DNA of 20,000 bases from an uncultured virus (IMG/VR IMGVR_UViG_3300001765_000045) (taxonomy: Duplodnaviria; Heunggongvirae; Uroviricota; Caudoviricetes): IMG/VR virus record IMGVR_UViG_3300001765_000045; one strand, written 5' to 3'. The notes under the pieces were generated by a model. It did not search any database, was not told the origin of the DNA, and saw nothing but the letters and a program-made list of their open reading frames with translations. The position numbers and the translations under genes are program-made. Numbering within the stretch: position 1 is the stretch's first letter; every line of letters starts with the position of its first letter. This document shows positions 1 to 17,426 of the stretch, piece after piece.

Positions 1-35
1 ATATACATCTAAGCTGATAAAGCTTAGATGTATAT
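1..35 (-). terminator. 15-bp perfect stem-loop, probable terminator closing the upstream structured RNA
   Basis: ATATACATCTAAGCT(1-15)-GATAA-AGCTTAGATGTATAT(21-35). Any minus-strand U-tract would lie beyond the window edge. Confidence 0.55.
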
Positions 36-535
36 AAACTTACATATATTTCCCAAAATGGGTATCCCCTAAACCAAGGGGACCACTACAGTTTTCACTG
101 CCTTGAGCATCCACCCCCGTAGTCATCAAGTTTGTGGTCTTATCTCTTTTACCATATAAGTTCAGCTTATACGGTACTTCTCATTGAGATTATACTTTCT
201 AACAAATTCAGGATCGCACAGTTTCCCTGGTCTTGGTGTATAACAATAAGTTATACTTTAAGATGGCATAAATGTTAAAATAGCTCAGTATAGACATATA
301 TCATATTAATATAATATTGATAATTAGTTTTTACTGATTTTGAGAAGATACTGACAGTATCCTACCTTTTTTAAAGGTAACAGGTATTAGTCCTGCTTCT
401 TTACGATGGATAAACTGTCTACCGTCTTTCGATTACAATATTATGCCTTGGAGAGTTCGTCTTACTAATGATTCATATAAGATTTTAAAATCTTATATCT
501 CCAACTGACTACTACTGTATTTTTCGGTATCGGGT
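36..535 (-). ncRNA. Large (~500 nt) structured non-coding RNA candidate
   Basis: No ORF in the track and richer in G+C than its flanks. Many nested helices: 448-454/498-504, 265-271/441-447, 343-347/396-400, 81-86/134-139, 102-106/126-130, 65-70/77-82. Long-range pair 119-125/506-512. GAAA tetraloops and a G-U pair read correctly on the minus strand. TATAAT upstream, hairpin downstream. Confidence 0.65.
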
Positions 536-539
536 CTAC

Positions 540-545
540 ATTATA
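540..545 (-). promoter_or_regulatory. -10 box (TATAAT) just upstream of the ncRNA candidate
   Basis: Plus-strand ATTATA at 540-545 reads TATAAT on the minus strand, a few nt before the structured region. Weak alone in AT-rich DNA. Confidence 0.35.
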
Positions 546-574
546 TAAGATGTTTAAGAAAAAAAATAACAACC

Positions 575-1702
575 TTAAATATCTATTATACTAAATATTT
601 TTAACGTCCATTTATCTAGTATAAGTGCATATACTTCAATATATCCAGTCGCATCCTTAAAATTATAAGCACCTACTGCAATAATATCACCTGAACTATT
701 AATACCTGTTGAATTACCAAAACGCACATATTCATTTTCACCTATTAATGTATTACCATATTGTGCCCAGTCATCTAATTCATATTTAAATATTGACACA
801 TAACCAGATTGGGTATAAGCATTATCTGCACCTATTATAACAATGTCACCAGTAGAATTAATATCTACTGATATACCAAAATTTTCTTTATTAAAATTAC
901 CTTCTAATTTAGTACCTATTTGTGTCCAAACATCTGAAATATATTTATATATTACTGCATAGCCTCTATAATTATTAGCACCATATGCTCCTATAACTAT
1001 AATATCGCCTGAACTATTTATAGATACTGACCGACCGAAATGTTCATTCTCAGATTCTCCTAATAATGTAACACCTTGTTGAACCCATTTATTATTTATA
1101 CACTTTAATACTTTAACATAACCTTTATAATTATCAGCGGCATAAGCCCCTATTATAACAGTATCACCTTTACTATTAATATCTACTGAATGACCAAAAT
1201 AATCATTGATAGATTCACTTATTATGATATTTCCTTGTAATACCCAATCGATTTTTTTAAATTTATATACTTTAGTAAAACCTGATTTACTATCTAAACC
1301 TATTACAACTGTATCACCTATACTATTAATAGCTAAAGTAGAAGAAAAAAATTTTCGGGTAGATTCACTTAATATTGTACTACCTTGTTGAACCCAATTT
1401 TTTAACATATATTTATAAATCTTGACATAACTGGTATTATCATTAATAGAACATGCTCCTATAGCTATAATATTACCTGGACCATTAATGGATACTGATA
1501 TACCAAACTTATCTCCCCATTTTTCACCTATTAATGTATCACCATACTGTTTCCATAGACCTGATATAAATTTATAAACTTTAGCATACCCTGTATAATT
1601 ATAATCTCCATAAGCCCCTATTATAACAGTGTCACCTTTACTATTAATATCTATTGAATAACCAAAATATTCGTGTGCTGAAATTCCTGTCATTAAATTC
1701 AA
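575..1702 (-). CDS. FG-GAP repeat seven-bladed beta-propeller protein (copy 1, no MNMGYSNWS leader)
   Basis: Seven ~53-aa repeats FGxSVxINxxGDxvxIGA...GYVKxYK...W. TTG start with AAGGAG (1714-1709) 6 nt upstream. Confidence 0.85.
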   Translation of the reverse strand: MNLMTGISAHEYFGYSIDINSKGDTVIIGAYGDYNYTGYAKVYKFISGLWKQYGDTLIGEKWGDKFGISVSINGPGNIIAIGACSINDNTSYVKIYKYMLKNWVQQGSTILSESTRKFFSSTLAINSIGDTVVIGLDSKSGFTKVYKFKKIDWVLQGNIIISESINDYFGHSVDINSKGDTVIIGAYAADNYKGYVKVLKCINNKWVQQGVTLLGESENEHFGRSVSINSSGDIIVIGAYGANNYRGYAVIYKYISDVWTQIGTKLEGNFNKENFGISVDINSTGDIVIIGADNAYTQSGYVSIFKYELDDWAQYGNTLIGENEYVRFGNSTGINSSGDIIAVGAYNFKDATGYIEVYALILDKWTLKIFSIIDI

Positions 1703-1818
1703 AATCTACTCCTTGATTTATTTACATATGGTAATACAAAATTCTCCAAATTATTAAAAAAAATTAATAACTACTAATAGTTATTAATTTTAAATCAATG
1801 TGATTTTTAATAATTTTT

Positions 1819-3162
1819 TTATGGTGTAGATTTTATAGATAGAAATAATTGTTCACGATACTTTGTTAAAAAATCTATAATAAACTCATTACCTTTAGGA
1901 CTTATTACTTTAGAATTAGATATATCTCCATAATAGTAATAATGTTTAAAAGGTAATGAACTTTTAACCAATTCTTTTTTAAGCTCTGGATTTTGATCTA
2001 TTTTAGCTTTAATAGCATTTATAATAATTTGCTGAAAATTATCTATATATATCTTAGGAAGATCTTTAGCGAATTTTTTAACTTCATAACCCGACATATT
2101 TTTTAACTCCGGGTATTTATATCCTGTAGATACATAGTACCAAAATCCTTCCAAGTTTTTAAAATATCCGTGTTGAGTATCATTAAACCCAATATCAGCT
2201 AAGTTACTTAAGTCTCTACCTAATTGAGTAGTACTTTTAGTATAAATATTGATATGATTAATTCCATCTTGAAGAGGAGATATCTCAAATGTATTTTCAA
2301 GATGGTGTTTTTTAAATTCTTCTAATCCTTTATCAAAATTACCTGATTTATTTAATTGTAGCCATATGTCTTTAATGACTTCTCCATGGCATGGAGCTGG
2401 TGCACAAAAACACATAAGTTCACTATCTGGTTTAATTTCACGAAGACTGTTTAGTATATCATAATCTTCATTTATTATAGAATTATTAAGATATTCCTTA
2501 TATTTAGCTATAGCTTCTAGTCTAGGAAGTTCTTTAGTAATAGGATAAGGGTTACCTAACGGACTTCCTCTTCCTATATATATAGTTTTATTAGTAGGTT
2601 TATCCTTATATTTATTCAGGATTTTTATTCCCGGTTTTTTACCTAATGCTAGTAATTTCTTTACTAATATTTCAGTATTCGCTTTACTAGCTAAGTTATA
2701 TACGGGTATATCATTTTTAGAAGCTATTGATATAGCTGTACCTGTTCCACCTGTTTCTTTTGTTCTATTACTATGATTTTCACAAGCATCAGGTGTCCAA
2801 CACACAACAAAATCTACTGGTGTTTTTAAATTTTGTCCAAGTATCTGTCCAATATTTCTAGCATGTAAAAGTTTAACATACTCAGATAAATTATCCCATA
2901 CTGGATGTATAGAAGATGCTATTTGACGATGCTGTATAGTTGGGTAATAATTATATGATTTGTGATCATTAGTTTTCTTAGGCAACCATATTTCTTTTTT
3001 ACCTTGAACTGCATCACATCCATATTCAAAAGCTTTATCACTACCATCAGCTGCTCCTGATCTTAATGTATAACCTATTTTAGCTAAATGTTTAGCTAAA
3101 ATAGACATAGTGAATATTATACTTTCCGGAACTTTTCTAGACCCTATGCCAGCATAAAACAT
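1819..3162 (-). CDS. Three-domain fusion: SLOG/DprA-like + DUF4326-like + NADAR-like phage domain
   Basis: N-terminal YAGIGSR..LRSGAADGSD..GGTGTAI..IPVYNL (SLOG). Middle YIGRGSPLGNPY..LMCFCAPAPCHGEVI (DUF4326). C-terminal DGINHINIY..LGRDLSN..F..LEGFW (NADAR-like; least certain). Confidence 0.7.
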   Translation of the reverse strand: MFYAGIGSRKVPESIIFTMSILAKHLAKIGYTLRSGAADGSDKAFEYGCDAVQGKKEIWLPKKTNDHKSYNYYPTIQHRQIASSIHPVWDNLSEYVKLLHARNIGQILGQNLKTPVDFVVCWTPDACENHSNRTKETGGTGTAISIASKNDIPVYNLASKANTEILVKKLLALGKKPGIKILNKYKDKPTNKTIYIGRGSPLGNPYPITKELPRLEAIAKYKEYLNNSIINEDYDILNSLREIKPDSELMCFCAPAPCHGEVIKDIWLQLNKSGNFDKGLEEFKKHHLENTFEISPLQDGINHINIYTKSTTQLGRDLSNLADIGFNDTQHGYFKNLEGFWYYVSTGYKYPELKNMSGYEVKKFAKDLPKIYIDNFQQIIINAIKAKIDQNPELKKELVKSSLPFKHYYYYGDISNSKVISPKGNEFIIDFLTKYREQLFLSIKSTP

Positions 3163-3173
3163 ATTTTATCCTT

Positions 3174-3214
3174 AAAAAAATATATACACCTGTACTATTA
3201 CTAGTACAGGTGTA
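3174..3214 (-). terminator. Intrinsic terminator
   Basis: 13-bp stem TACACCTGTACTA(3185-3197)/TAGTACAGGTGTA(3202-3214). A-run at 3174-3180 gives a U-tract on the minus strand. Confidence 0.75.
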
Positions 3215-3226
3215 ATAATTTATCTA

Positions 3227-3625
3227 TTAAATTTGTTCAATATGTATATTTTGATACCCTAATGCTAATAAAGCATCACGTATTCTGGATATATCTACTA
3301 CTGATATATCTGTTACTGTTACTCTAATATTAATAGATTCAATAAGTTCAACACTTGTCATGTTAATCCATTGATCAGCTAATACTATAGTCGATCCATT
3401 TTCTGCTTTAAACTTATAAAAAATAGATGTTCTTACTTGATCAGGTGTACCCACTGGTAATAATGGATACACATTTCTATATTTAACATCTATTTCATCA
3501 TATTTACGGGCTGTCTCATAATCCATAATACCGTTAAGTTTAGCATTTTTAACTATAGTCCCAAGTAAAGCTGGAGCTGTTGTTGAAAATGAATATATTT
3601 TATTTAATTCAAAAGGGTAAGACAC
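3227..3625 (-). CDS. Hypothetical protein, probably conserved in phiKZ-like phages
   Basis: 132-aa ORF with AGGAG RBS and GTG start. The YSFxTxAPALLG N-terminus recalls jumbo-phage conserved proteins (from memory, unverified). Confidence 0.7.
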   Translation of the reverse strand: MSYPFELNKIYSFSTTAPALLGTIVKNAKLNGIMDYETARKYDEIDVKYRNVYPLLPVGTPDQVRTSIFYKFKAENGSTIVLADQWINMTSVELIESINIRVTVTDISVVDISRIRDALLALGYQNIHIEQI

Positions 3626-3636
3626 AATTAATTCTC

Positions 3637-4077
3637 CTAAGGTCTAAATACCAAATTATCATACTCTATATTAAGAACATGTGCTGTTACAGTTATATAT
3701 GTACCATATATATTATGTAATATATACACATTTTCATCTGATTCTGGTAGATACATAGAGATATAATTATATAAATACATTAACAGTAATTGTAACTCTG
3801 TTTTATAAGCATTAAATAATGGAATATCTTCTGCAGCTACCTGGGCTATAAAAGTATGATTTTCTACAGCCATTAAAAATCGGTATTTATTATCAATATT
3901 GGTAATAATAAAATGTGTGATATTGTTAAGAGTTTCAATTAACTTACGTGAACTTGAGTATTGAACTACCGGGGGTATATTAAATATTTTATACAAAAAA
4001 TCTAAAATATACCCCATAGGTTCTTTAAAATCTATTATAATTAATTCTTTATGAAATGAACCTGGTATAGATTGCAT
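3637..4077 (-). CDS. Hypothetical protein
   Basis: ORF in a tightly packed operon. The ATG at 4077 directly follows the upstream stop, so it is preferred over the TTG at 4089. Confidence 0.65.
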   Translation of the reverse strand: MQSIPGSFHKELIIIDFKEPMGYILDFLYKIFNIPPVVQYSSSRKLIETLNNITHFIITNIDNKYRFLMAVENHTFIAQVAAEDIPLFNAYKTELQLLLMYLYNYISMYLPESDENVYILHNIYGTYITVTAHVLNIEYDNLVFRP

Positions 4078-4079
4078 TT

Positions 4080-4496
4080 TTAACACCAAGAAATTACAGC
4101 TGTTTTAGGACTTATCCAGTTTTGAATAACATATCGTTCATATTCATTACTAGATGCTATATTAAAATTAATTAATATGTTATTCAAATATGTGTCCAAG
4201 TATATAACATATCTATCGTTATAAAAACCAGTTGTTTCGAAATCTTCATCATCTAAACTAACACGTTTTTTATCTAGTATATGTGTAATACTTTCCATTA
4301 CAAATTCTGAATAACTGGGTGTTGGTTCTGAATTAGCTATAATTGTAATATAATCACAAAAATCTATATAGTTCCTTAATATAGCTGGAGCATTTTGTAG
4401 ATAATTGTGTTTAAGTTCAGTCATATCAACTATAACTACTGATTCACCTAATAATTGTGAATATGTATTACTAGATCTATTTTCATTCATTATCAT
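4080..4496 (-). CDS. Hypothetical protein
   Basis: 138-aa ORF overlapping the upstream gene's stop (translational coupling). Confidence 0.65.
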   Translation of the reverse strand: MIMNENRSSNTYSQLLGESVVIVDMTELKHNYLQNAPAILRNYIDFCDYITIIANSEPTPSYSEFVMESITHILDKKRVSLDDEDFETTGFYNDRYVIYLDTYLNNILINFNIASSNEYERYVIQNWISPKTAVISWC

Positions 4497-5142
4497 CCTT
4501 TAGTTGAATATTACACCATTCATAAACTCGATAGTCACATGTTCTTTCAACTATAATGGAGTTATTAAATGTTTTAGTAAAAAATATACTCCACCTATGA
4601 TCTTTAATAATATTATAAATTTCATCAAATAAATTACTAAAATCATCTACATAAATATCTGTTTTGATATAATATATATATTTTTCTTTAATATATGACT
4701 TAAGTTTAGTTTGACTAACATAAGTTCTATAGTACATATAACTATTAATGATCTGATCTATTAGTTCCTTTATAAATAAAAGATATACATAATTAGAATT
4801 AGGTTCTATAGTTAATTGATTTTCTATTTTTTTAAGTTGTTTATAAGTAATATAAAGTTCATAACCACTTCTATTTAATTTATATACATTTCCTTTATTA
4901 ATCTTTATATCATCATTACTAGTGATAACTTGATAATCATTTTCAGTTCTAATATAATATATACTATTAAACTCTATCAATGGTGTGTAAGAGTTTTTGA
5001 TATATATACCATTCACTAGTTCAAATTTATCTTTATTTTTTTCAAACGTATCTAAATGATTATCAAGACTAATGATATATGTTTCCTCAGGTGTAATTAG
5101 TAAATTGGTAACATAATCATTGTTTATAGTAACGATAGTCAC
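4483..5142 (-). CDS. Hypothetical protein
   Basis: 219-aa ORF with a 4-nt GTGA start/stop overlap with the upstream gene. Confidence 0.7.
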   Translation of the reverse strand: MTIVTINNDYVTNLLITPEETYIISLDNHLDTFEKNKDKFELVNGIYIKNSYTPLIEFNSIYYIRTENDYQVITSNDDIKINKGNVYKLNRSGYELYITYKQLKKIENQLTIEPNSNYVYLLFIKELIDQIINSYMYYRTYVSQTKLKSYIKEKYIYYIKTDIYVDDFSNLFDEIYNIIKDHRWSIFFTKTFNNSIIVERTCDYRVYEWCNIQLKDDNE

Positions 5143-5564
5143 TGCATAACTCCTTCAAAAACCCACAAACTGTTACCAACTACGGTTAATTTAATAATTC
5201 TACTACCATTAGTCCGATTACGTCCTAAACTAATATAAGGATCATTAACTAAAATATTATATGTTTTAAGTTTGTAATATAAAGTATTTATAAAAGTTTC
5301 TCCTAAAATATCTTTATAGATACTATCAAATAAATCATTATCTATAAAATTACTTTGTATTCTAGAACCGTTAAAGTTTAAATTGTACTTACTGACATTA
5401 GCAAATGACATGTGAATACAATAATCGAAGAGTGTGTTAATATCATTACGACTTAGTATATATCCAGAAATTAGATATTCAATAGTATTTTCAAAATAAT
5501 CTACTAGATCTCTGATATCTAAAATATGAATCTTGTAATCACGTTCTACGTATGTTTTAGCCAC
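5139..5564 (-). CDS. Hypothetical protein
   Basis: 141-aa ORF with GTG start and AGGAG RBS; first gene after a terminator. Confidence 0.7.
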   Translation of the reverse strand: MAKTYVERDYKIHILDIRDLVDYFENTIEYLISGYILSRNDINTLFDYCIHMSFANVSKYNLNFNGSRIQSNFIDNDLFDSIYKDILGETFINTLYYKLKTYNILVNDPYISLGRNRTNGSRIIKLTVVGNSLWVFEGVMQ

Positions 5565-5600
5565 AGAAATCTCCTATCCCATGTAATATGTCCAGATAAG

Positions 5601-5645
5601 AAAAAAATACCGCTAGAAGCCCATTAGAAGGGCTTCTAGCGGTAT
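5601..5645 (-). terminator. Intrinsic terminator of phuZ
   Basis: 16-bp stem ATACCGCTAGAAGCCC(5607-5622)/GGGCTTCTAGCGGTAT(5630-5645) plus an A-run starting at 5601 (U-tract on the minus strand). Confidence 0.85.
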
Positions 5646-5659
5646 CCATACCTTTTATA

Positions 5660-6643
5660 CTAAAGGATCAAACCTTCATCAGTTGAATCATGCTGTTCTT
5701 TACCGATGATAGATTTTTCGATTACAACTTGACGAGCTTCTTTAAATTGTTCAAGTTTAACATCTAGTTCAGCTGCTTTAATATTGAAATATCCACCAAT
5801 AACACCGGCATGGATAGGCAATTGAACATGGAGTACTTCTTTATTCTCATCCATGATATAACCTACACATTGATATTCAACAGGAATATCTAGTTCTGGA
5901 CTATTATCATCATCACACAAAGTAGCCACAGTAATCAATGAAGTACCTTTTTCAAGAGTGATAGTTTTACTCCAGAAATCTAAATAGTTTAATTTAGACT
6001 GGAAATCAGTTACTCTATGATAATTGATAAAGTTATTTAGATCAGCTTTATCTAGTTCTCTATTTTGACCACTGAATAATACAGCTAACAACATAATAAG
6101 TGTTGTAACTTCATTATCAACTTTACCACGTGGAGTGATTTTACTATTTTCTTTATAACAAGCTACAACTGGATGGTCACATTTCTTAGAAATGTTCTCA
6201 TAAGATTTTAATGTCTTTAGAGTATTTTCTACTTCAATACGACTAGCATTGCTACCTACTATCACAGGAATAACAAGATCACCGCGTTTAACTAGTTCTG
6301 ATACTAGAATAGGACCAATAACGCTTCCGCTACCACCAGATGCACTATGTAGTACAATGTTAACTGTCGATGGTTTATATTGATGAAGAATGTCTTTAAC
6401 ACTCTCACTTAATGCACCATAATTTTGATCACGTTTCTTACCACTACCATCTATACCTTCTAGGATATATAATTTATCTTCATTAATAGTCTTTTTACCT
6501 ATCATATTACTACGACTGGTATCTATATAACAGATATCCATGTCAGCGTAACCTTTATTACTTTTACCTTCATATTGTCCAAATCCACTAGCGATGTTTA
6601 CACCAAATCCACCGCAGGCATAGATTCTTAATTTATCAGTCAT
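5660..6643 (-). CDS. phuZ: Phage tubulin PhuZ/TubZ (tubulin/FtsZ-family GTPase)
   Basis: YACGGFGVNI (T1 loop), IDTS, DGSGKKR, SASGGSGS (tubulin signature), ELDKADL (T7 loop), acidic tail ending DEGLIL. Start moved to ATG 6643 because of the AGGAG RBS; 327 aa. Confidence 0.9.
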   Translation of the reverse strand: MTDKLRIYACGGFGVNIASGFGQYEGKSNKGYADMDICYIDTSRSNMIGKKTINEDKLYILEGIDGSGKKRDQNYGALSESVKDILHQYKPSTVNIVLHSASGGSGSVIGPILVSELVKRGDLVIPVIVGSNASRIEVENTLKTLKSYENISKKCDHPVVACYKENSKITPRGKVDNEVTTLIMLLAVLFSGQNRELDKADLNNFINYHRVTDFQSKLNYLDFWSKTITLEKGTSLITVATLCDDDNSPELDIPVEYQCVGYIMDENKEVLHVQLPIHAGVIGGYFNIKAAELDVKLEQFKEARQVVIEKSIIGKEQHDSTDEGLIL

Positions 6644-6711
6644 TATACTACTCCTATATGTAACCCAAGTTTTAACTGTACTACCAAATGGAAAACCGCG
6701 ACTCATGAAAA

Positions 6712-7209
6712 TTATGTACTACGAAAAATAGCATAATCCCTAAATTTCTTTATTTTGTTGATATATGTATTATCTTTAATACCTCTATAACAAAAAATAG
6801 ATTTTTCAAGATCTCCTTTATGTTTACGAACACAATCACTATATATACCTATTCCTACTCTGATATTATCATCTAAATCTAAAGGTGTTTTTTTAAATTT
6901 ATTCCTATGGTATCTTATATTTACTTGCATGATACCTTGTGAATATTTACCTGGTCCTATAGCTTTACTATTTAAATTACTTTCAATTACCCCTAATGCT
7001 AAAATAGTATTAGGATTAATATCAGTAAATGAACTATAATGACTAATAAGTTCTGTTATTTCACGTATATCCGTATTTTTGTTTTTACATATTTTGTTAC
7101 AGAGATTTTCAGCTTTATCATAATCAATAACATATGATCCAGCTTGGACTGTATTAATTAATAAAAAGATAGATATTACAAATATACTAAATAAACTGTT
7201 GCGCATCAT
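6712..7209 (-). CDS. SLT-domain lytic transglycosylase with N-terminal signal peptide
   Basis: Catalytic IESN, SQGIMQV, NIRVG..Y, and FCY in place of AYN. Hydrophobic N-terminus ending VQA. Confidence 0.8.
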   Translation of the reverse strand: MMRNSLFSIFVISIFLLINTVQAGSYVIDYDKAENLCNKICKNKNTDIREITELISHYSSFTDINPNTILALGVIESNLNSKAIGPGKYSQGIMQVNIRYHRNKFKKTPLDLDDNIRVGIGIYSDCVRKHKGDLEKSIFCYRGIKDNTYINKIKKFRDYAIFRST

Positions 7210-7364
7210 TTAAAAAATCCTTTAAAAAATTTGAATTTACAGAAGAACGGTTAGTGTGATTTTAAATACCTCTATTAAAAAAGTTGAACTAGTTATTTCC
7301 ATATATAATATATATCACTTTTATATAAATAGAAAAGGTCTCATTATATACAAAGGTTTTTATT

Positions 7365-7423
7365 AAAAAAAACTATAACATCTTGAATTACCCCATCCTT
7401 TTATAGGACGAAGTAATTCAAGA
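7365..7423 (-). terminator. Probable terminator after FG-GAP copy 2
   Basis: TCTTGAATTAC(7381-7391)/GTAATTCAAGA(7413-7423) with an inner G-U-containing stem on the minus strand; A-run at about 7365-7372. Confidence 0.6.
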
Positions 7424-7440
7424 CAAATACATGTTAATGA

Positions 7441-8598
7441 TTAAGTATAGACTTTAACATAACCTGTAGAGCTATTAGCATATGATGCTCCTATAGCTAT
7501 AGTTATACCTGTGCTATTAATTGATACTGAAGAACCAAACCTATCACCAGTATTTTCACCTGTTAATTTAGCGCCTTGTAAAGTCCATGAATCAGATGCA
7601 AATTTATAGATTTTAACATATCCTTTATAATTATCAGCTCTATTTGCTCCTATAGCTACAATATCACCTGTACCACTAATAGATACTGAGCAACCAAATT
7701 TATCATAAGAAACTTCACCTATTAATTTAGCACCTTGTAGAGTCCATGTATTAGATATATTTTTATAAACTTTAGCATACCCTGTAGAGCTATTAGAATC
7801 AGATGCTCCTATAGCTACAATATCACCTATACTATTTAAAGATACTGCTGTACCAAAGTATTCACTACTAACTTCACCATTTATTCTACTTCCCTGTAGA
7901 GTCCATGTACCGGATATATTTTTATATATTTTAACATATCCTTTAAAACTCGCACCATAAACTGCTCCTATAGCTACAGTATCACCTACGCTATTAATAG
8001 ATATTGCAATACCAAAATAATCATTAGCAGCTTCGCCGTCTATTCTAGTTCCTTGTAGAGTCCATGCACCAGATATAAGTTTATATACTTTAACATACCC
8101 TTTATAACTATTAGCATATGCTGCTCCTATGGCTATAATATCACCTGGACCATTAATAGATACTGAGATACCAAAGAAATTACCAGTACCTTCACCTAAT
8201 ATTTTAGCACCTTGTAAAGTCCATATACCAGATATAAGTTTATAGACTTTAGCATACCCTGTAGAGCTATTAGCGGCATATGCTCCTATAATTACAGTAT
8301 CACCTGCACTATTAATAGATATTGAACCACCAAAGCTTTGACTAATAGCTTCACCATCTATTTTAGACCCCTGTAAAGTCCATATATTAGCCACATTTTT
8401 ATAAACTTTAACATATCCTACACCACTTGATGATGATATAGCTACAGTATCACCTACACTATTTAAAGATACTGCAGTACCAAAATACTCATCAATAGTC
8501 CCACCTGTTAATTTTACTTGTTCTACTCCAGATATACCATCACTAGCTTTAGTAGTAAAAACATTTATATCACTCCAATTGCTATAACCCATGTTCAT
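7441..8598 (-). CDS. FG-GAP seven-bladed beta-propeller protein (copy 2, MNMGYSNWS leader)
   Basis: Seven FG-GAP repeats after the leader MNMGYSNWSDINVFTTK; ends at a repeat boundary (YVKVYT*). Confidence 0.85.
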   Translation of the reverse strand: MNMGYSNWSDINVFTTKASDGISGVEQVKLTGGTIDEYFGTAVSLNSVGDTVAISSSSGVGYVKVYKNVANIWTLQGSKIDGEAISQSFGGSISINSAGDTVIIGAYAANSSTGYAKVYKLISGIWTLQGAKILGEGTGNFFGISVSINGPGDIIAIGAAYANSYKGYVKVYKLISGAWTLQGTRIDGEAANDYFGIAISINSVGDTVAIGAVYGASFKGYVKIYKNISGTWTLQGSRINGEVSSEYFGTAVSLNSIGDIVAIGASDSNSSTGYAKVYKNISNTWTLQGAKLIGEVSYDKFGCSVSISGTGDIVAIGANRADNYKGYVKIYKFASDSWTLQGAKLTGENTGDRFGSSVSINSTGITIAIGASYANSSTGYVKVYT

Positions 8599-8602
8599 TC
8601 CT
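8572..8602 (-). repeat. 31-bp invariant cassette leader, copy A
   Basis: AGGAATGAACATGGGTTATAGCAATTGGAGT on the minus strand; identical to 11745-11775 and 19782-19812. Confidence 0.95.
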
Positions 8603-9470
8603 TTACAGTTTAGAAATTATTAAAGATATTATAATTTTACCTATACCTTCTTATACCTATATAAGAAATCTTTTGTTCTAGGGTATTTAGAGATTGTTAT
8701 AAAGGTATATATAACAAATGGACTATTACCCAGAAAAAAATCGGTATCAGACGCTTGAACAGCTTATTGGTATTAGACGATCTAAAAAGTAACTTATCTA
8801 ATAAAGTAATAATATATAAATAATTTAAATGGTTTCTATTACTTTCTATAGGAAACTTTAAAATGGTAACTAAAGTTTCCTATAGAACATTTTAAATAAC
8901 TAATGGAAACTTAGATAACTAATTAATTAAATTAAAAATATTTATACCAGTATATATACCTATACATGTTATTTTTTACATATACTAACTTATAAGCATT
9001 TTTGTTCTAATATCTATAACTTTATAAAAATATCTAATTAATTTTAGTATATATATTCTGTATATACAGAATATATATACTCTAACTAATGTTCTTAAAA
9101 AACCATGTCGTCTGTATCGTTTGTTTTCTATAGCCTTCCTATAGAAACCATTTAAATTATTTTTTTAGAGTTTTCTTTTATAAGGTACATATGTAACCTA
9201 TGTAAAAAAATACCATATGTAACCTAGCTGGCTATAATAGTATATTCTATGTATATACTTCGTATATACTATAGAATATAGTATATACGATTTCCCCCCT
9301 TTCCCCCGTAGGTCCCTTTCCCCCCTTTCAAAGACGGTGAGTGTAACCCATTTAATATGTATTATGGGAAGAAAAAAATACGTAAACTATAAAAACGCAA
9401 TAGAATCTAGTATTTTCATATATACAGATTGTATATTATTATATAGTAATCTCAATGACTTGGTAACAAT
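8603..9470. other. Divergent strand-switch intergenic region with palindromes; candidate replication origin/control region
   Basis: 22-bp inverted repeat 8818-8839/9141-9162; 17-bp stem 8844-8887; 36-bp palindrome 9046-9081; direct repeat CATATGTAACCTA at 9188-9200 and 9214-9226; hairpin 9241-9280; C-tracts 9294-9325. Confidence 0.45.
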
Positions 9471-9486
9471 TATAGGAGTAGTTAAA

Positions 9487-9984
9487 ATGGGTGTTTTTAA
9501 TATAGTAGAAATGACTAAAGAACAAAATCAAATAGAACCTGATACTAAAATACCGGAAAAGATAATAGAGACAACTAAAGTAAATGAAACAGAGAATATC
9601 ATTAAAAATAAAGAAGATAAACTTATTACTTTAAATGGTAATCTAAGTCAAATCTATACTGACGCATTAAATCAAATGTATGCTATTGAAAATATGGGAA
9701 GTATGTTTAATATTATAAATAGTGTTTCTGATCAAAAAGAAACTTCTGATGATTTATATGTACATATAGTTGACAGTGATGATTTAGAAAATATAGACCC
9801 TATTAAAATAGTTAGAAATCTTAGATTAGCTTTAGATAAACGTACTGAAACTACTAAATTATTAGTTTTAGAAAGTAATAATTTAACAGCTAAAATCATA
9901 GGCGATTATTTTAACATAAGAGGTATTAAATCTATATATAACAGAGATAGCGCTTTACAGACTATTCGTAATTACTTAAGTTAA
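9487..9984 (+). CDS. Hypothetical protein (possible virion protein)
   Basis: ATG 9487 (MGVFNIVE) follows AGGAG, so it is preferred over the GTG at 9337; 165 aa. Confidence 0.7.
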   Translation: MGVFNIVEMTKEQNQIEPDTKIPEKIIETTKVNETENIIKNKEDKLITLNGNLSQIYTDALNQMYAIENMGSMFNIINSVSDQKETSDDLYVHIVDSDDLENIDPIKIVRNLRLALDKRTETTKLLVLESNNLTAKIIGDYFNIRGIKSIYNRDSALQTIRNYLS

Positions 9985-9998
9985 ACTGGAGTTTATAA

Positions 9999-11201
9999 AT
10001 GTATACTTTAGGCGGTGTGTTTGACAAATACTTTGAACATCTAAAGTTTAACAAAGAACTAGCTGCAAAAATATACCATTTTCAGTTAAAATATCTAAAT
10101 AGTGATAGAGAATATTTAGAATTCTACGGAAGTAATTTATTAGGTGTTCATAGATTAAGGTTTAAGGTAAGTGATTATAATACTTTTATGTATGATATAT
10201 TAGAAGTTGATATAGAAGCCTTAGACAAAGATTTAGATCACGTGCCTAGTGTAGTTAAGATAAATAAAGTTACCAGTGATTTATTTAATTTAAGTTGTGT
10301 ATACTTAATACATAGGTTTATGGGTAGTAATGAATTAAATGATAAAGATAAACAAAGAGTTTGTTATGATATAGCTAGTTTATTTATCATGAGATGTTTT
10401 GCTGCTTATATTAGTGCTTATTTTACATATCCTGCTGAAGAACGTATAGTTAAAATAGCTTATAGTAATTTAACTGGTAATAGCCTTATTAAGAAACTAG
10501 GTAACTGGTTTAAAGTAGTTGATTATAGAGCTAATGCCATGATAGATAAAAATGGTATACATTATAAAGCATTTAAAACACTTAATGAAGAAAAAGTAGC
10601 AATCATTATTAGTGATACTAAAGATAGAGTTAAAGATCATATTAAAAATTATTATAGTCAAATAGTTAAAGTTAAAAATAGTGGTGATATGCTTGGTACT
10701 ATAGGTAGTATGGCTATAGATGACGAAGGTGTTAATTCTTTAGTAGATAGAGTTAATAACATAGAAACTAAATCACTTAAGATAAAAAGTCTTATAGCTA
10801 GTGGTAACTTTAATAATACTGATTATATATATCTGGTATGCAGTATGAATAAAAATACAAATATTAAAAATATTGCTTCAGTGGTCAACTGGGTATCAGA
10901 TAATTATATGAAAAATAATGCTACTATCAATGAGTTTATAGATAAACTAACTGAATATACATATTATTTAATTAATAACAAAATAAGAGCTAGTGCTAGA
11001 AAAGATGTAAGTAAGCTACTAATAGAACTTAAATATTTATATGTTAGTAATAGAGTTGAAGATGATTTGATGGAAGAAGTAAGAGAATTAGCTGAGAATA
11101 TAGTTAAATTAAGTAGTAATAAATCTATGTATAAAGGTCTATTACTTTCTACAAGAACTACATTTATACTATATATAGCATTACTTATGATTATTAATTA
11201 A
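9999..11201 (+). CDS. Conserved phiKZ-like protein, putative virion structural protein
   Basis: 400-aa ORF with GGAG RBS. The FYGSNLLGVHRLRF motif resembles a conserved structural protein of phiKZ-like phages (from memory, unverified). Confidence 0.6.
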   Translation: MYTLGGVFDKYFEHLKFNKELAAKIYHFQLKYLNSDREYLEFYGSNLLGVHRLRFKVSDYNTFMYDILEVDIEALDKDLDHVPSVVKINKVTSDLFNLSCVYLIHRFMGSNELNDKDKQRVCYDIASLFIMRCFAAYISAYFTYPAEERIVKIAYSNLTGNSLIKKLGNWFKVVDYRANAMIDKNGIHYKAFKTLNEEKVAIIISDTKDRVKDHIKNYYSQIVKVKNSGDMLGTIGSMAIDDEGVNSLVDRVNNIETKSLKIKSLIASGNFNNTDYIYLVCSMNKNTNIKNIASVVNWVSDNYMKNNATINEFIDKLTEYTYYLINNKIRASARKDVSKLLIELKYLYVSNRVEDDLMEEVRELAENIVKLSSNKSMYKGLLLSTRTTFILYIALLMIIN

Positions 11202-11744: not shown

Positions 11745-11775
11745 AGGAATGAACATGGGTTATAGCAATTGGAGT
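11745..11775 (+). repeat. 31-bp invariant cassette leader, copy B
   Basis: Identical to copies A and C; preceded by ATTTTAAACA, as is copy C. Confidence 0.95.
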
Positions 11776-12930
11776 ACAGGAAATTCTTTTACTACTAAAA
11801 CCACATATGGTATCAGTGGTTTAGAACAAGCGGTATTTCACGGTGAAAGTAACTATCAATTCCACGGTTGTTCAGTATCTATTAATGGAATAGGTGATAC
11901 TGTAGCTATAGGAGCATATGGTTGGGCAGCGAATTCAGGATATGTTAAAGTATATAAACTTATATCTGGTACATGGGGACAAATAGGTAATGGATTATAT
12001 GGTCAAACATGGGCTGGAACTAAATTTGGTTGGGCTGTATCAATTAATTCTACTGGTGATGTTATAGCTATAGGCGAGAAAAATATTGGTAGTGATACAG
12101 GGCGTGTTAATGTCTTTAAATACATATCAAATGCATGGATACGAGTAGGTGAAGCATATCAGATGCAAGGTGAAGCATATAGTGATTATTTTGGTTGCTC
12201 AGTATCTATAAATAATGCAGGCGATATTGTAGTTGTAGGAGCATCAAATGCTAATAGCTCTACAGGATATGTTAAAATCTATAAACTTGTATCTGATGTA
12301 TGGACTTTACAAGGCGCTAAATTAACAGGTGAAGCAAATGGTGGTGAATTTGGTTGCTCAGTATCCATTAATGGTCTTGGTGATATTATAGCTATAGGAG
12401 CATATAGAGCTAATAATGCTAAAGGATATGTTGAAATATATAAAAATATATCTGGCACATGGACTCTACAGGGTACTAGACTATCAGGTGAAGCAGTTAA
12501 TGATTATTTTGGTATAGCAGTATCTATTAATGATTTAGGTGATATTGTAGTTATAGGAGCATTTTATGCTAATAGTTATACAGGATATGTTAAGGTCTAT
12601 AAATTTATATCTGGCACATGGACTCAACAGGGTACTAGAATAGACGGTAATGCTGAGAATGCTTACTTTGGTCGATCTGTATCTATTAATGACGCAGGTG
12701 ATATTATAGCTATAGGAGCACCTAATTCTTATGATTATAGAGGATCTGTTAAAATCTATAAATTTGCATCTGATTCATGGGTTCAACAGGGTATTACAAT
12801 TATAGGTGCCCAATATGTAGGTAGTATAGATTTAGGCAATTCTGTTTCTTTAAATAGTGCAGGTGATACTATAGCTATAGGAGCACAGCAAAATAATGTT
12901 GCAACTGGATATGTTAAAATTTATAAGTAA
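11749..12930 (+). CDS. FG-GAP seven-bladed beta-propeller protein (copy 3, MNMGYSNWS leader)
   Basis: Seven FG-GAP repeats after MNMGYSNWSTGNSFTTK; ends YVKIYK*. Confidence 0.85.
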   Translation: MNMGYSNWSTGNSFTTKTTYGISGLEQAVFHGESNYQFHGCSVSINGIGDTVAIGAYGWAANSGYVKVYKLISGTWGQIGNGLYGQTWAGTKFGWAVSINSTGDVIAIGEKNIGSDTGRVNVFKYISNAWIRVGEAYQMQGEAYSDYFGCSVSINNAGDIVVVGASNANSSTGYVKIYKLVSDVWTLQGAKLTGEANGGEFGCSVSINGLGDIIAIGAYRANNAKGYVEIYKNISGTWTLQGTRLSGEAVNDYFGIAVSINDLGDIVVIGAFYANSYTGYVKVYKFISGTWTQQGTRIDGNAENAYFGRSVSINDAGDIIAIGAPNSYDYRGSVKIYKFASDSWVQQGITIIGAQYVGSIDLGNSVSLNSAGDTIAIGAQQNNVATGYVKIYK

Positions 12931-16736: not shown

Positions 16737-17426
16737 ATGGTTGAACTTGACGACTATTTTTCAGATGACCCAGAGATATTAAGTTCAACTAAATCATCTG
16801 ATGATAAACCTTATAAACAAAAGTATGGTCAAGGACAGAAAAAACCTTTCTATGAAAAGAAAGAAGTAGATTTAGAAACATTTACTTTATACAAACCTTA
16901 TACTATAGTAGGTAATTCAGGTGCTCCTCAATCTGTCTTAGATCAAACTAAAGAAATTATAGATATGTTAATAGATAATGGGTTTACTGCTAGAGTGACA
17001 TGTTCTTCTGATATGGACACTTATATAGAACAAGAATTACAAGGTTCGTTCTATGAACTTTATATACCTTGGAAAGACTTCAATAATAAACAGTCTAAAT
17101 TTTATTTTAATGATGCTTTATCTAAACATGTGGCTAAGATGTTCCATAGGACATTTGATTCCCTTAAACCAGCTGTACAAGCATTCTTAGCTAGGAATGT
17201 TAGAATGGTTTTAGGTGAAAAACTAAAAAGTTATAGTCTTTTTGTTTTAGTATGGTCAGAAGATGGTGTTGAACAAATCAACGACATAAGTTTTAAAACT
17301 GGTATGGTTTCACATGTTATTTCTGTAGCTAGAGCATTACATATTCCTGTTTTTAACTTACAACATACTAGTACTAAAGATAGATTAATTAAATATCTGC
17401 GTCTTAAACAACCAGTTAAGCAGTAA
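16737..17426 (+). CDS. SLOG/DprA-like protein (degenerate)
   Basis: YTIVGNS, ELYIPWKDFN, ARNVRMVLG..FVLVWSEDG and IPVFNL parallel the N-domain of 1819-3162. Confidence 0.7.
   Translation: MVELDDYFSDDPEILSSTKSSDDKPYKQKYGQGQKKPFYEKKEVDLETFTLYKPYTIVGNSGAPQSVLDQTKEIIDMLIDNGFTARVTCSSDMDTYIEQELQGSFYELYIPWKDFNNKQSKFYFNDALSKHVAKMFHRTFDSLKPAVQAFLARNVRMVLGEKLKSYSLFVLVWSEDGVEQINDISFKTGMVSHVISVARALHIPVFNLQHTSTKDRLIKYLRLKQPVKQ

Follow-up and report, generated by a model that had tools for sequence, protein, structure and literature searches.

A candidate large non-coding RNA gene in an uncultured freshwater phiKZ-like jumbo phage

What does a phage keep in half a kilobase of DNA that encodes no protein? 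The question is raised by positions 1–545 of the window, by which we mean the whole 20,000-nt stretch that was analysed from an uncultured virus (IMG/VR IMGVR_UViG_3300001765_000045). An earlier note on this DNA had read most of that interval as an ornate RNA of a jumbo phage, transcribed from the minus strand and belonging either to a class such as ROOL or GOLLD or to a new one. We find that window 1–545 is, on balance, probably a stand-alone large non-coding RNA gene of an uncultured freshwater phiKZ-like jumbo phage.

To our knowledge, few large structured RNAs lack a known role, and each new class is a source of new biochemistry. A further uncatalogued one matters here because it lies in a phage lineage that runs its own transcription, has tRNA genes nearby, and is found in lake RNA libraries of two studies. 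If our reading is correct, it extends the ROOL/GOLLD kind of RNA to phiKZ-like jumbo phages and offers a target that can be tested directly by in vitro transcription, probing, and cryo-EM, with no need for phage culture.

Genomic Setting

The window encodes a PhuZ tubulin (1e-88, PHROGs) and the beta subunit of a phage multisubunit RNA polymerase (7e-111, PHROGs), the polymerase being of the split multisubunit type; together, these two genes bear out the earlier assignment to a jumbo phage. Searches with PHROGs and Pfam also recognized a transglycosylase, an Rz-like spanin, a RuvC-like resolvase, and two DprA-like proteins, and Pfam identified three FG-GAP repeat proteins. The best GenBank relative of the beta subunit is that of Bacillus phage AgentSmith (33%), followed by those of phiKZ-type phages (∼28%). 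Judged by these protein sequences, the host is best placed as a deep-branching phiKZ-like jumbo phage, with a G+C content of ∼29%.

The upstream neighbor of the block is an FG-GAP gene on the minus strand (575–1702), which encodes 375 aa and has its own stop; its paralogues measure 370–393 aa. For the other side, the contig itself was retrieved by a pattern scan as L003, which matches window 1–10426 at 100% identity and reaches 9.6 kb beyond the window start. Past the terminator of the block, the minus strand there carries, in order, a second hairpin, ATATATACTATAAGTGAG, a tRNA-like element, two small ORFs, an FG-GAP gene, and tRNAs. The cassette of hairpin and ATATATACTATAAGTGAG occurs three times downstream (two exact copies and one with 2 mismatches), and ATATATACTATAAGTGAG itself, at up to 3 mismatches, has 9 matches vs. 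2.5 expected. The block thus belongs to a series of short terminator–promoter units. The tRNA-like element lies 66 nt past the terminator and scores 26.8 bits (E 0.004; the Rfam threshold is 29 bits), and ARAGORN places four tRNA genes 3–4.6 kb onward (L003 4933–6552). In one DNA run, X2, ∼1587 extra nt sit at 560–568, between the FG-GAP gene and the promoter, with the RNA block kept. The insertion upstream leaves the RNA unit intact, which therefore appears to travel as a module. Another AT-rich palindromic region occupies 8599–9336, between divergent genes.

Transcription Signals and Coding Capacity

The proposed unit reads as follows, from its promoter side to its terminator.

540..545, minus strand: −10-like hexamer TATAAT, seen in the sequence; puts +1 at ∼533
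559..566, minus strand: T8 tract upstream of TATAAT, seen in the sequence; at ∼−33 to −26 if the start is 533
98..533, minus strand: RNA body as assembled from RNA libraries (X4 contig 98–531, X8 contig 124–533)
36..97, minus strand: 3′ stretch from the RNA body to the terminator, either retained in the primary transcript or lost by trimming
1..35, minus strand: intrinsic terminator hairpin with a 15-bp stem and 5-nt loop, then a U-tract

Both flanking signals named in the earlier note are in place: TATAAT at 545–540 on the minus strand, and a 15-bp hairpin at 1–35 whose arms (1–15 and 21–35, each 15 nt) are 100% complementary. Read on the minus strand, six U come directly after the hairpin (L003 9593–9588), or seven with the closing pair, a tract that falls just outside the window in contig L003. 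Hairpin and U-tract form a classical intrinsic terminator for the minus strand only; the unit therefore comprises TATAAT, ∼540 nt without an ORF, and an intrinsic terminator. The −10 box and the terminator, thus arranged, agree with the claim of a minus-strand non-coding unit and make the minus strand the probable strand of the RNA.

A sigma-70 two-hexamer scan called no promoter at 540–545 because TATAAT has no −35 partner there. Promoters of phiKZ early genes are described in PMC8244752 as an extended −10 box with a T-rich motif upstream of −19. The combination of TATAAT and an upstream T tract appears to resemble them, so the phage RNA polymerase may read the unit early. Transcription would start at about position 533 of the minus strand, 7 nt after TATAAT and with the T-rich tract upstream, and the transcript would run for ∼540 nt without an ORF before ending at the 15-bp hairpin and U-tract.

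The description of the block as ORF-free holds. With common start codons, the longest ORF is 48 aa on the plus strand (132–278) and 35 aa on the minus strand (465–572), the latter starting upstream of the RNA; when seven start codons are allowed, the maxima become 49 aa on the plus strand (359–508) and 41 aa on the minus strand (40–165). Alternative codes (table 4 with TGA as W, and TAG as Q) opened no convincing frame in the block; read from stop to stop, the plus strand gave the longest one, 106 aa, which contains three TGA codons. A recoded small protein was accordingly rejected, as no frame for one was found with seven starts, TGA as W, or TAG as Q. The RNA would then act through its fold and not through a protein product. 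The block had also been called GC-rich, which is true of about its first 300 nt only: G+C is 0.355–0.37 over ∼1–300 and 0.275–0.285 over 301–600, the latter like the rest of the window. For the RNA body at 98–533, G+C is 0.33 vs. 0.29 over 29.6 kb of the contig.

Presence in RNA and DNA Libraries

The stretch or part of it occurs in 13 of the 16 public runs listed (nine studies), and 6 of these 13 are RNA libraries, all freshwater metatranscriptomes. Contigs from two RNA runs, belonging to two studies, and from two DNA runs were placed on window 1–4000. RNA run X4 yielded a 434-nt contig equal to window 98–531, and RNA run X8 yielded a 410-nt contig equal to 124–533; each has one other letter and no loose end. 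On the promoter side, the two contigs end 2 nt apart, 7–9 nt after TATAAT and 0–2 nt from the predicted +1. Matching ends at 531/533 give a weak hint of a real end, coming as they do from contigs that carry no strand, start, or level. The long contigs have depths of 48.5 and 24.8, compared with 2.7 for a 151-nt contig of X4 at 560–708 that bridges the end of the FG-GAP gene and the promoter region; these values are unfit for ranking genes, but an abrupt stop of a contig at such depth would be hard to explain by DNA carry-over. The parts of 1–4000 left uncovered (1–97 and 709–4000 in X4, 1–123 and 534–4000 in X8) are no evidence of silence. In the remaining four RNA runs, the word shares are 0.62, 0.62, 0.62, and 0.45, which by our own arithmetic fit contigs of similar length.

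The discrete RNA predicted by the earlier note thus finds a counterpart in block sequence assembled from RNA libraries of two freshwater studies. Three features point to the minus strand for this RNA: its −10 box, its terminator, and the contrast between a sharp end at 531–533 and a ragged one at 98/124. The species that accumulates in the lake samples would span at least 98–533, ∼435 nt. Contigs of DNA run X2 lie across all 30 bins and continue through the neighboring genes; an artificial spike-in RNA was rejected because the DNA runs have the block joined to phage genes.

These data also bear on whether the RNA is a stable but functionless by-product of neighboring transcription, such as the 3′ tail of the FG-GAP mRNA, read-through, or a spacer. 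The block lies directly downstream of the minus-strand gene at 575–1702, the 151-nt contig of X4 spans the gene end and the promoter region, and the RNA is so far known from one phage population, all of which would suit such a by-product. Against this, the long RNA contigs end at 531/533 and not at the gene, with TATAAT at the right distance; ∼1.6 kb of other DNA separates the gene from the block in X2; and G+C is raised in the 3′ half of the RNA, as it is in structural RNAs of AT-rich genomes. We regard this explanation as quite improbable.

At the other end, the RNA contigs stop inside a predicted 3′ junction, about 100 nt or more before the terminator, which may reflect trimming or poor cover of the GC-rich 3′ end. 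The same gap would be explained if the RNA were a replication primer or origin transcript, a folded RNA that hybridizes to DNA and is cut to prime replication, as ColE1 RNA II and the T4 origin transcripts do. An ORF-free ∼540 nt with a promoter, many inverted repeats, and two strands that fold equally would suit such a transcript. A strong intrinsic terminator, however, is unexpected for a primer; the local skew is negative throughout 1–1700, the direct repeats are short two-copy families, and the palindromic region at 8599–9336 makes a better origin candidate. A priming role is therefore very unlikely in our estimate, and a stand-alone RNA gene is still the reading that we prefer.

Catalogued RNA Families

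We compared the locus with Rfam 15, whose 4227 families include ROOL, GOLLD, introns, tmRNA, RNase P, 6S, SRP, OLE, and HEARO. At the gathering threshold, cmscan of the whole window returned 0 matches. With E raised to 10, window 1–700 gave only two chance matches, to a snoRNA and an miRNA, and L003 9100–10250 gave 26, none of them ROOL, GOLLD, Intron_gpI, or tmRNA. The ROOL family model did not match the block even at E 10, nor did the GOLLD model, including its conserved 3′ region, at E up to 10. Many GOLLD members exceed 800 nt, whereas the unit here is ∼540 nt and the assembled RNA 410–434 nt. The setting is of the ROOL kind, with phage genes around the block, the tRNA-like element 66 nt on, and the four tRNA genes.

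No Rfam match was obtained to RNase P RNA, 6S, SRP, OLE, HEARO, or other catalogued large RNAs. The block lacks the tRNA-like ends and tag frame of a tmRNA, and none of the Rfam tmRNA families matched it even with E raised to 10; in the window, ARAGORN called neither a tRNA nor a tmRNA, and in L003 it called only the four tRNA genes, none of them in the block. Membership in ROOL or GOLLD, one arm of the earlier proposal, accordingly fails in the cmscan comparison with Rfam, there being no match at E up to 10; the other arm, a new class, survives on the strength of one phage population. Since neither family model matches, we file the RNA as new and uncatalogued, possibly ROOL/GOLLD-like in action.

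Introns called for closer scrutiny, as group I introns abound in related phages: three of five IMG/VR relatives hold 16 matches in 7 loci, at 62–88 bits, so Intron_gpI is able to recognize introns of this lineage. Once excised, introns can build up as discrete RNAs, and those of related jumbo phages are ORF-free structured blocks of ∼250–330 nt that fill large genome gaps. Intron_gpI nevertheless found nothing on the block at E up to 10. A lineage intron profile, built from 15 of the 16 introns after dropping one cut by a locus end, also found nothing in 29.6 kb of the 64.6-kb contig (best E 6.2). The lineage introns share AATTGC..GGAAAC, GTTCAACGACTA, and AAGATATAGTC blocks, whereas the RNA here is without a group I core. 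There are, moreover, no exons to join, the upstream ORF being complete at 375 aa among paralogues of 370–393 aa, and the block comes with a −10 box and terminator of its own. An excised intron or mobile-element RNA of the group I kind is thereby largely refuted, and we give it next to no weight. The claim that the block shows no tmRNA, RNase P, or intron hallmarks is upheld by Rfam, ARAGORN, and the intron profile.

The neighborhood suggests one further function. Phage tRNA arrays and RNA mimics are established means of counter-defense, and a self-contained unit of early type that lies near tRNA and tRNA-like genes, in a module whose upstream neighbor varies among strains, could be an anti-defense or decoy RNA. 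Such a bulk early transcript would not be a scaffold but would soak up or mislead a host factor, for which a tRNA-cleaving or RNA-sensing defense protein, a ribonuclease, or an RNA chaperone can be proposed. However, the RNA has no segment that looks like the phage tRNAs, and the window has neither a repeat array of the toxin–antitoxin RNA or CRISPR type nor a defense-related gene adjoining the block. We consider a decoy unlikely. For the stand-alone RNA gene that we favor, a structural or scaffold mechanism like that of ROOL and GOLLD would be the most likely, by analogy in size, setting, and lack of an ORF only.

Comparison with Large Phage RNAs

ROOL is described in PMC5737381 and 10.1101/2024.12.08.627333 as a large ORF-less RNA that averages 581 nt, is encoded by phages and prophages, frequently with tRNA genes close by, may reach very high abundance, and has no known function. 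The same two sources place ROOL and GOLLD together among phage and prophage RNAs often found near tRNA islands, and 10.1101/2024.12.08.627333 reports that both form RNA-only cages. RNAs of this kind are described as assembling alone or with translation-related partners. Like ROOL, the RNA here is large (∼435–540 nt), lies in a phage with a tRNA-like element 66 nt downstream, and appears in RNA libraries. Unlike ROOL, it has no match in Rfam at E 10, and its host is a phiKZ-like jumbo phage of lakes. ROOL is defined by multistem junctions and pseudoknots, whereas the RNA here is known from single-sequence folds.

GOLLD is described from lake metagenomes and from phages and prophages, in the neighborhood of tRNAs; it has two domains, a part of which varies, and rises in expression during phage lysis. 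The RNA here is similar in that an AT-rich middle linker separates its better-folding parts. It differs in being 540 nt at most (GOLLD is often >800 nt), in having no embedded tRNA, and in matching no GOLLD model in Rfam.

Small RNAs have been sought in phiKZ and 201phi2-1, in a search that applied a filter of <250 bp and reported 8 of 11 sRNAs as 5′UTR-derived (PMC11512511); one mapped sRNA of a phiKZ-like phage lies just upstream of a tRNA (PMC11512511). The RNA here shares with these the type of phage lineage and a self-contained promoter-to-terminator unit, but it has two to three times their length and is free-standing. Our literature searches turned up no account of such an RNA in phiKZ-like phages; a catalogue of candidate structured RNAs from viruses and phages (PMC10690425) may bear on its novelty.

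Our verdict is that the RNA resembles ROOL and GOLLD in size and setting, belongs to neither, and represents an uncatalogued family, so far from one phage population. Mechanistically, it would be a stable structural or scaffold RNA of the ROOL/GOLLD kind. A more far-reaching proposal, which we offer tentatively and expect to be wrong in at least some of its parts, is that this gene founds a new family of large, self-folding RNAs in phiKZ-like jumbo phages, made early by the phage polymerase, abundant in lake infections, and serving either in an RNA-only assembly or as a scaffold linked to translation or tRNA. It would in that case belong to a wider, as yet unpublished set of large jumbo-phage RNA genes located next to tRNA genes.

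Searches for Homologues

The search for homologues covered GenBank phages, IMG/VR, JGI metagenomes, and GTDB genomes. Blastn of window 1–600 against 50,697 GenBank phage records gave no match. In IMG/VR, three DNA patterns taken from the RNA hit 0, 0, and 11 loci with no true match; the 11 loci reach at most 10.5 bits with R1, a covariance model that we built from a predicted three-way junction at 353–419, and are attributable to chance. A 19-mer searched in the JGI metagenomes recovered the contig itself and one chance match in a GC-rich coding region (L002), and the sole match to a 20-mer in GTDB genomes was 21 nt long, a chance resemblance within a bacterial gene that encodes 306 aa.

When neighboring proteins, four in number, were used to scan IMG/VR, no close relative emerged, the best reaching 40%; the alignment of the RNA polymerase beta subunit holds 20 loci at 40% identity or less. 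These 20 loci and Bacillus phage AgentSmith made up our set of distant relatives. Within it, the best E values were 0.07 for BLAST on 5 records, 6.1 for nhmmer over ∼0.71 Mb, and, for model R1, 1 over 1.05 Mb and 0.19 on 17 whole records. The AgentSmith region around the DprA-like and RNA polymerase genes has no large gap. Closer relatives, at 74% and 58–65% protein identity, exist in further assemblies (Logan, ENA, and JGI) outside the searched set: RNA polymerase beta subunits at 74% (one protein) and 58–60% (six proteins), and a DprA-like protein at 65% encoded on a contig of 8.2 kb. No homologue having been obtained, there is no covariation to draw on, and the detailed fold therefore stays a prediction.

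Folding of the Block

Does the block fold better than its composition would dictate? On the minus strand, positions 36–545 fold to −130 kcal/mol vs. −102.9 ± 6.4 kcal/mol for 100 dinucleotide shuffles (z −4.25), and on the plus strand, z is −4.38; none of the 100 shuffles was as good in either case, which bears out the expectation that the block would outfold shuffled controls. We also folded 11 windows of 436 nt, each strand against 25 shuffles, and among the 22 folds the block was the most extreme (z −4.3 and −3.9); three others had z of −2.6 to −3.6, and the remainder lay between −1.8 and +1.5. When energy was regressed on G+C across 196 window folds, 98–533 was unremarkable, at −0.7 and −1.1 SD. 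Folding energy overall does not discriminate the strand, since both fold equally well. The block thus appears to be unusually foldable, while the detailed helix model is predicted from a single sequence, whose folds are ambiguous among alternatives.

The RNA is predicted to begin, at its 5′ end, with a domain built on the palindromic hairpin. A three-way junction comes next, then a linker rich in A+T, a cluster of hairpins, and, at the 3′ end, a GC-rich junction. Three of these parts are set out below.

448..504, minus strand: predicted 5′ domain, a UUGGAGA/UCUCCAA stem around the 24-nt palindromic hairpin 475–498; pair probabilities 0.4–1.0
353..419, minus strand: predicted three-way junction, a GACAGU..AUCC stem with two hairpins; in the MFE, centroid, and MEA folds
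140..262, minus strand: predicted hairpin cluster, the 7-bp UAUAACU hairpin 238–256 and the 11-bp hairpin 150–176; from inverted repeats and the fold

The bracketing of a 24-nt palindrome by TTGGAGA and TCTCCAA, described in the earlier note, is exact: the two motifs (448–454 and 498–504) flank 475–498, and the palindrome is perfect. The domain at 448–504 recurs in every fold computed; taken alone on the minus strand, it has a z of −1.2, no better than shuffles. The segment that holds the three-way junction (340–447, 108 nt) does better (z −2.5, with 2 of 200 shuffles as good), and the hairpins of the junction are CAGG-ACUAAUA-CCUG and UACCUUU-AAA-AAAGGUA. We considered the first of these, with its 7-nt loop, as a mimic of a tRNA anticodon arm and rejected it, as it differs from the anticodon arm of tRNA-Leu(UAA). 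The AT-rich linker between the better-folding parts is ordinary relative to shuffles on the minus strand (z −1.0). The hairpin cluster has a z of −2.84, again with 2 of 200 shuffles as good, and both of its hairpins, at 150–176 and 238–256, lie where they had been placed before. The arms of the hairpin at 150–176 are 11 nt long and 91% complementary, with one G-U pair that becomes A-C if the plus strand is read.

Nearest the 3′ end, the minus strand of 36–140 folds into a further three-way junction, closed by GACCAC (139–134) and GUGGUC (83–78), which extends beyond the ends of the RNA-library contigs (98 and 124). This segment reaches −31.9 kcal/mol on the minus strand vs. −21.9 kcal/mol on the plus strand, 10 kcal/mol better on the minus. 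It also contains, at 100–89 of the minus strand, the hairpin CAGT-GAAA-ACTG, one of the two GAAA tetraloops that had been proposed; the other, ATC-GAAA-GAC, forms no proper hairpin.

The long-range helices fared less well than the local ones. Their motifs are present as described, GGCATAA at 265–271 with TTATGCC at 441–447 (169 nt apart) and GTAGTCA at 119–125 with TGACTAC at 506–512. Neither the closure of a domain by the first pair nor the long-range contact through the second is favored, however: both helices have a pair probability of ≤0.01, and forcing them costs 2.8 kcal/mol (GGCAUAA/UUAUGCC) and 9.3 kcal/mol (GUAGUCA/UGACUAC) relative to the MFE. By our own arithmetic, chance alone would give ∼7–8 complementary 7-mer pairs in a sequence of 500 nt.

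A single variant, 230 G>A, falls within the RNA and is present in all four mapped runs (two RNA and two DNA). On the minus strand, this change gives a U-A pair where there was a C-A mismatch in the hairpin proposed at 209–229, one observation only.

Repeated cassettes and tRNA genes beyond the window

Three copies of one motif and several tRNA or tRNA-like genes were found on L003, the window's own contig as recovered from JGI metagenomes:

L003 4933-5007 and 6478-6552: tRNA-Met(CAU) gene in two identical copies, CCA encoded, 1.5 kb apart
L003 7038-7053, 9139-9154 and 9529-9544: copies of the motif ATATATACTATAAGTGAG (written on the plus strand)
L003 9456-9527, minus strand: tRNA-like element outside the window, 66 nt past the terminator

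On the minus-strand reading, each motif copy comes after a CCTTTTCAATAGAAAGG-type hairpin, and this cassette is repeated with two copies exact and one carrying two mismatches. The cassette resembles a terminator with a phage-specific promoter behind it, ahead of small genes. The tRNA-like element, which scored slightly below the Rfam threshold (26.8 bits vs. 29; E 0.004) and was not called by ARAGORN, overlaps the promoter-like motif at its 3′ end. Because its D-arm is good, its anticodon loop has 6 nt, and its T-arm and acceptor are broken, we read the element as a decayed or unusual tRNA. Alongside the identical tRNA-Met(CAU) pair lie a third, different tRNA-Met(CAU) and one tRNA-Leu(UAA).

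FG-GAP paralogues and other features of the window

At least four paralogous genes for FG-GAP repeat proteins, of 370-393 aa each, lie within 30 kb. They are listed here with the other features:

window 575-1702, 7441-8598 and 11749-12930, and L003 7547-8659: FG-GAP repeat protein genes
window 1819-3162: 447-aa fusion protein that joins a DprA-like domain to DUF4326 and to a third domain (phrog_652)
window 8599-9336: gap separating divergent gene blocks, 20-27% G+C
window 16737-17426: second DprA-like gene

In the public DNA run X2, many contigs of the FG-GAP gene were <90% alike, with joints between repeats, and ∼1587 extra nt were present at window 560-568. These observations suggest a strain-variable array of the FG-GAP genes. 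The gap contains long AT palindromes and the most extreme deviation from the regression of folding energy on G+C among 196 window folds (8801-9236, minus strand, -3.1 SD); a C-rich repeat, TTTCCCCCCTTTCCCCC..CCCTTTCCCCCCTTTC, stands immediately ahead of the gene at 9337. The gap is a candidate for an origin or for a region of divergent promoters. For the 447-aa fusion, 231 matches included a sole full-length relative, 65% identical.

Group I introns in distant relatives

Group I introns lacking an ORF are densely packed in the distant relatives G002, G004, and G003 (IMG/VR records; RNAP beta 37-40% identical), where we located them in L035, L038, L039, L041, L045, L048, and L066. These loci gave 16 Rfam matches in 140 kb, often in tandem. 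Of the large conserved gaps without ORFs in these phages, the introns explain almost all.
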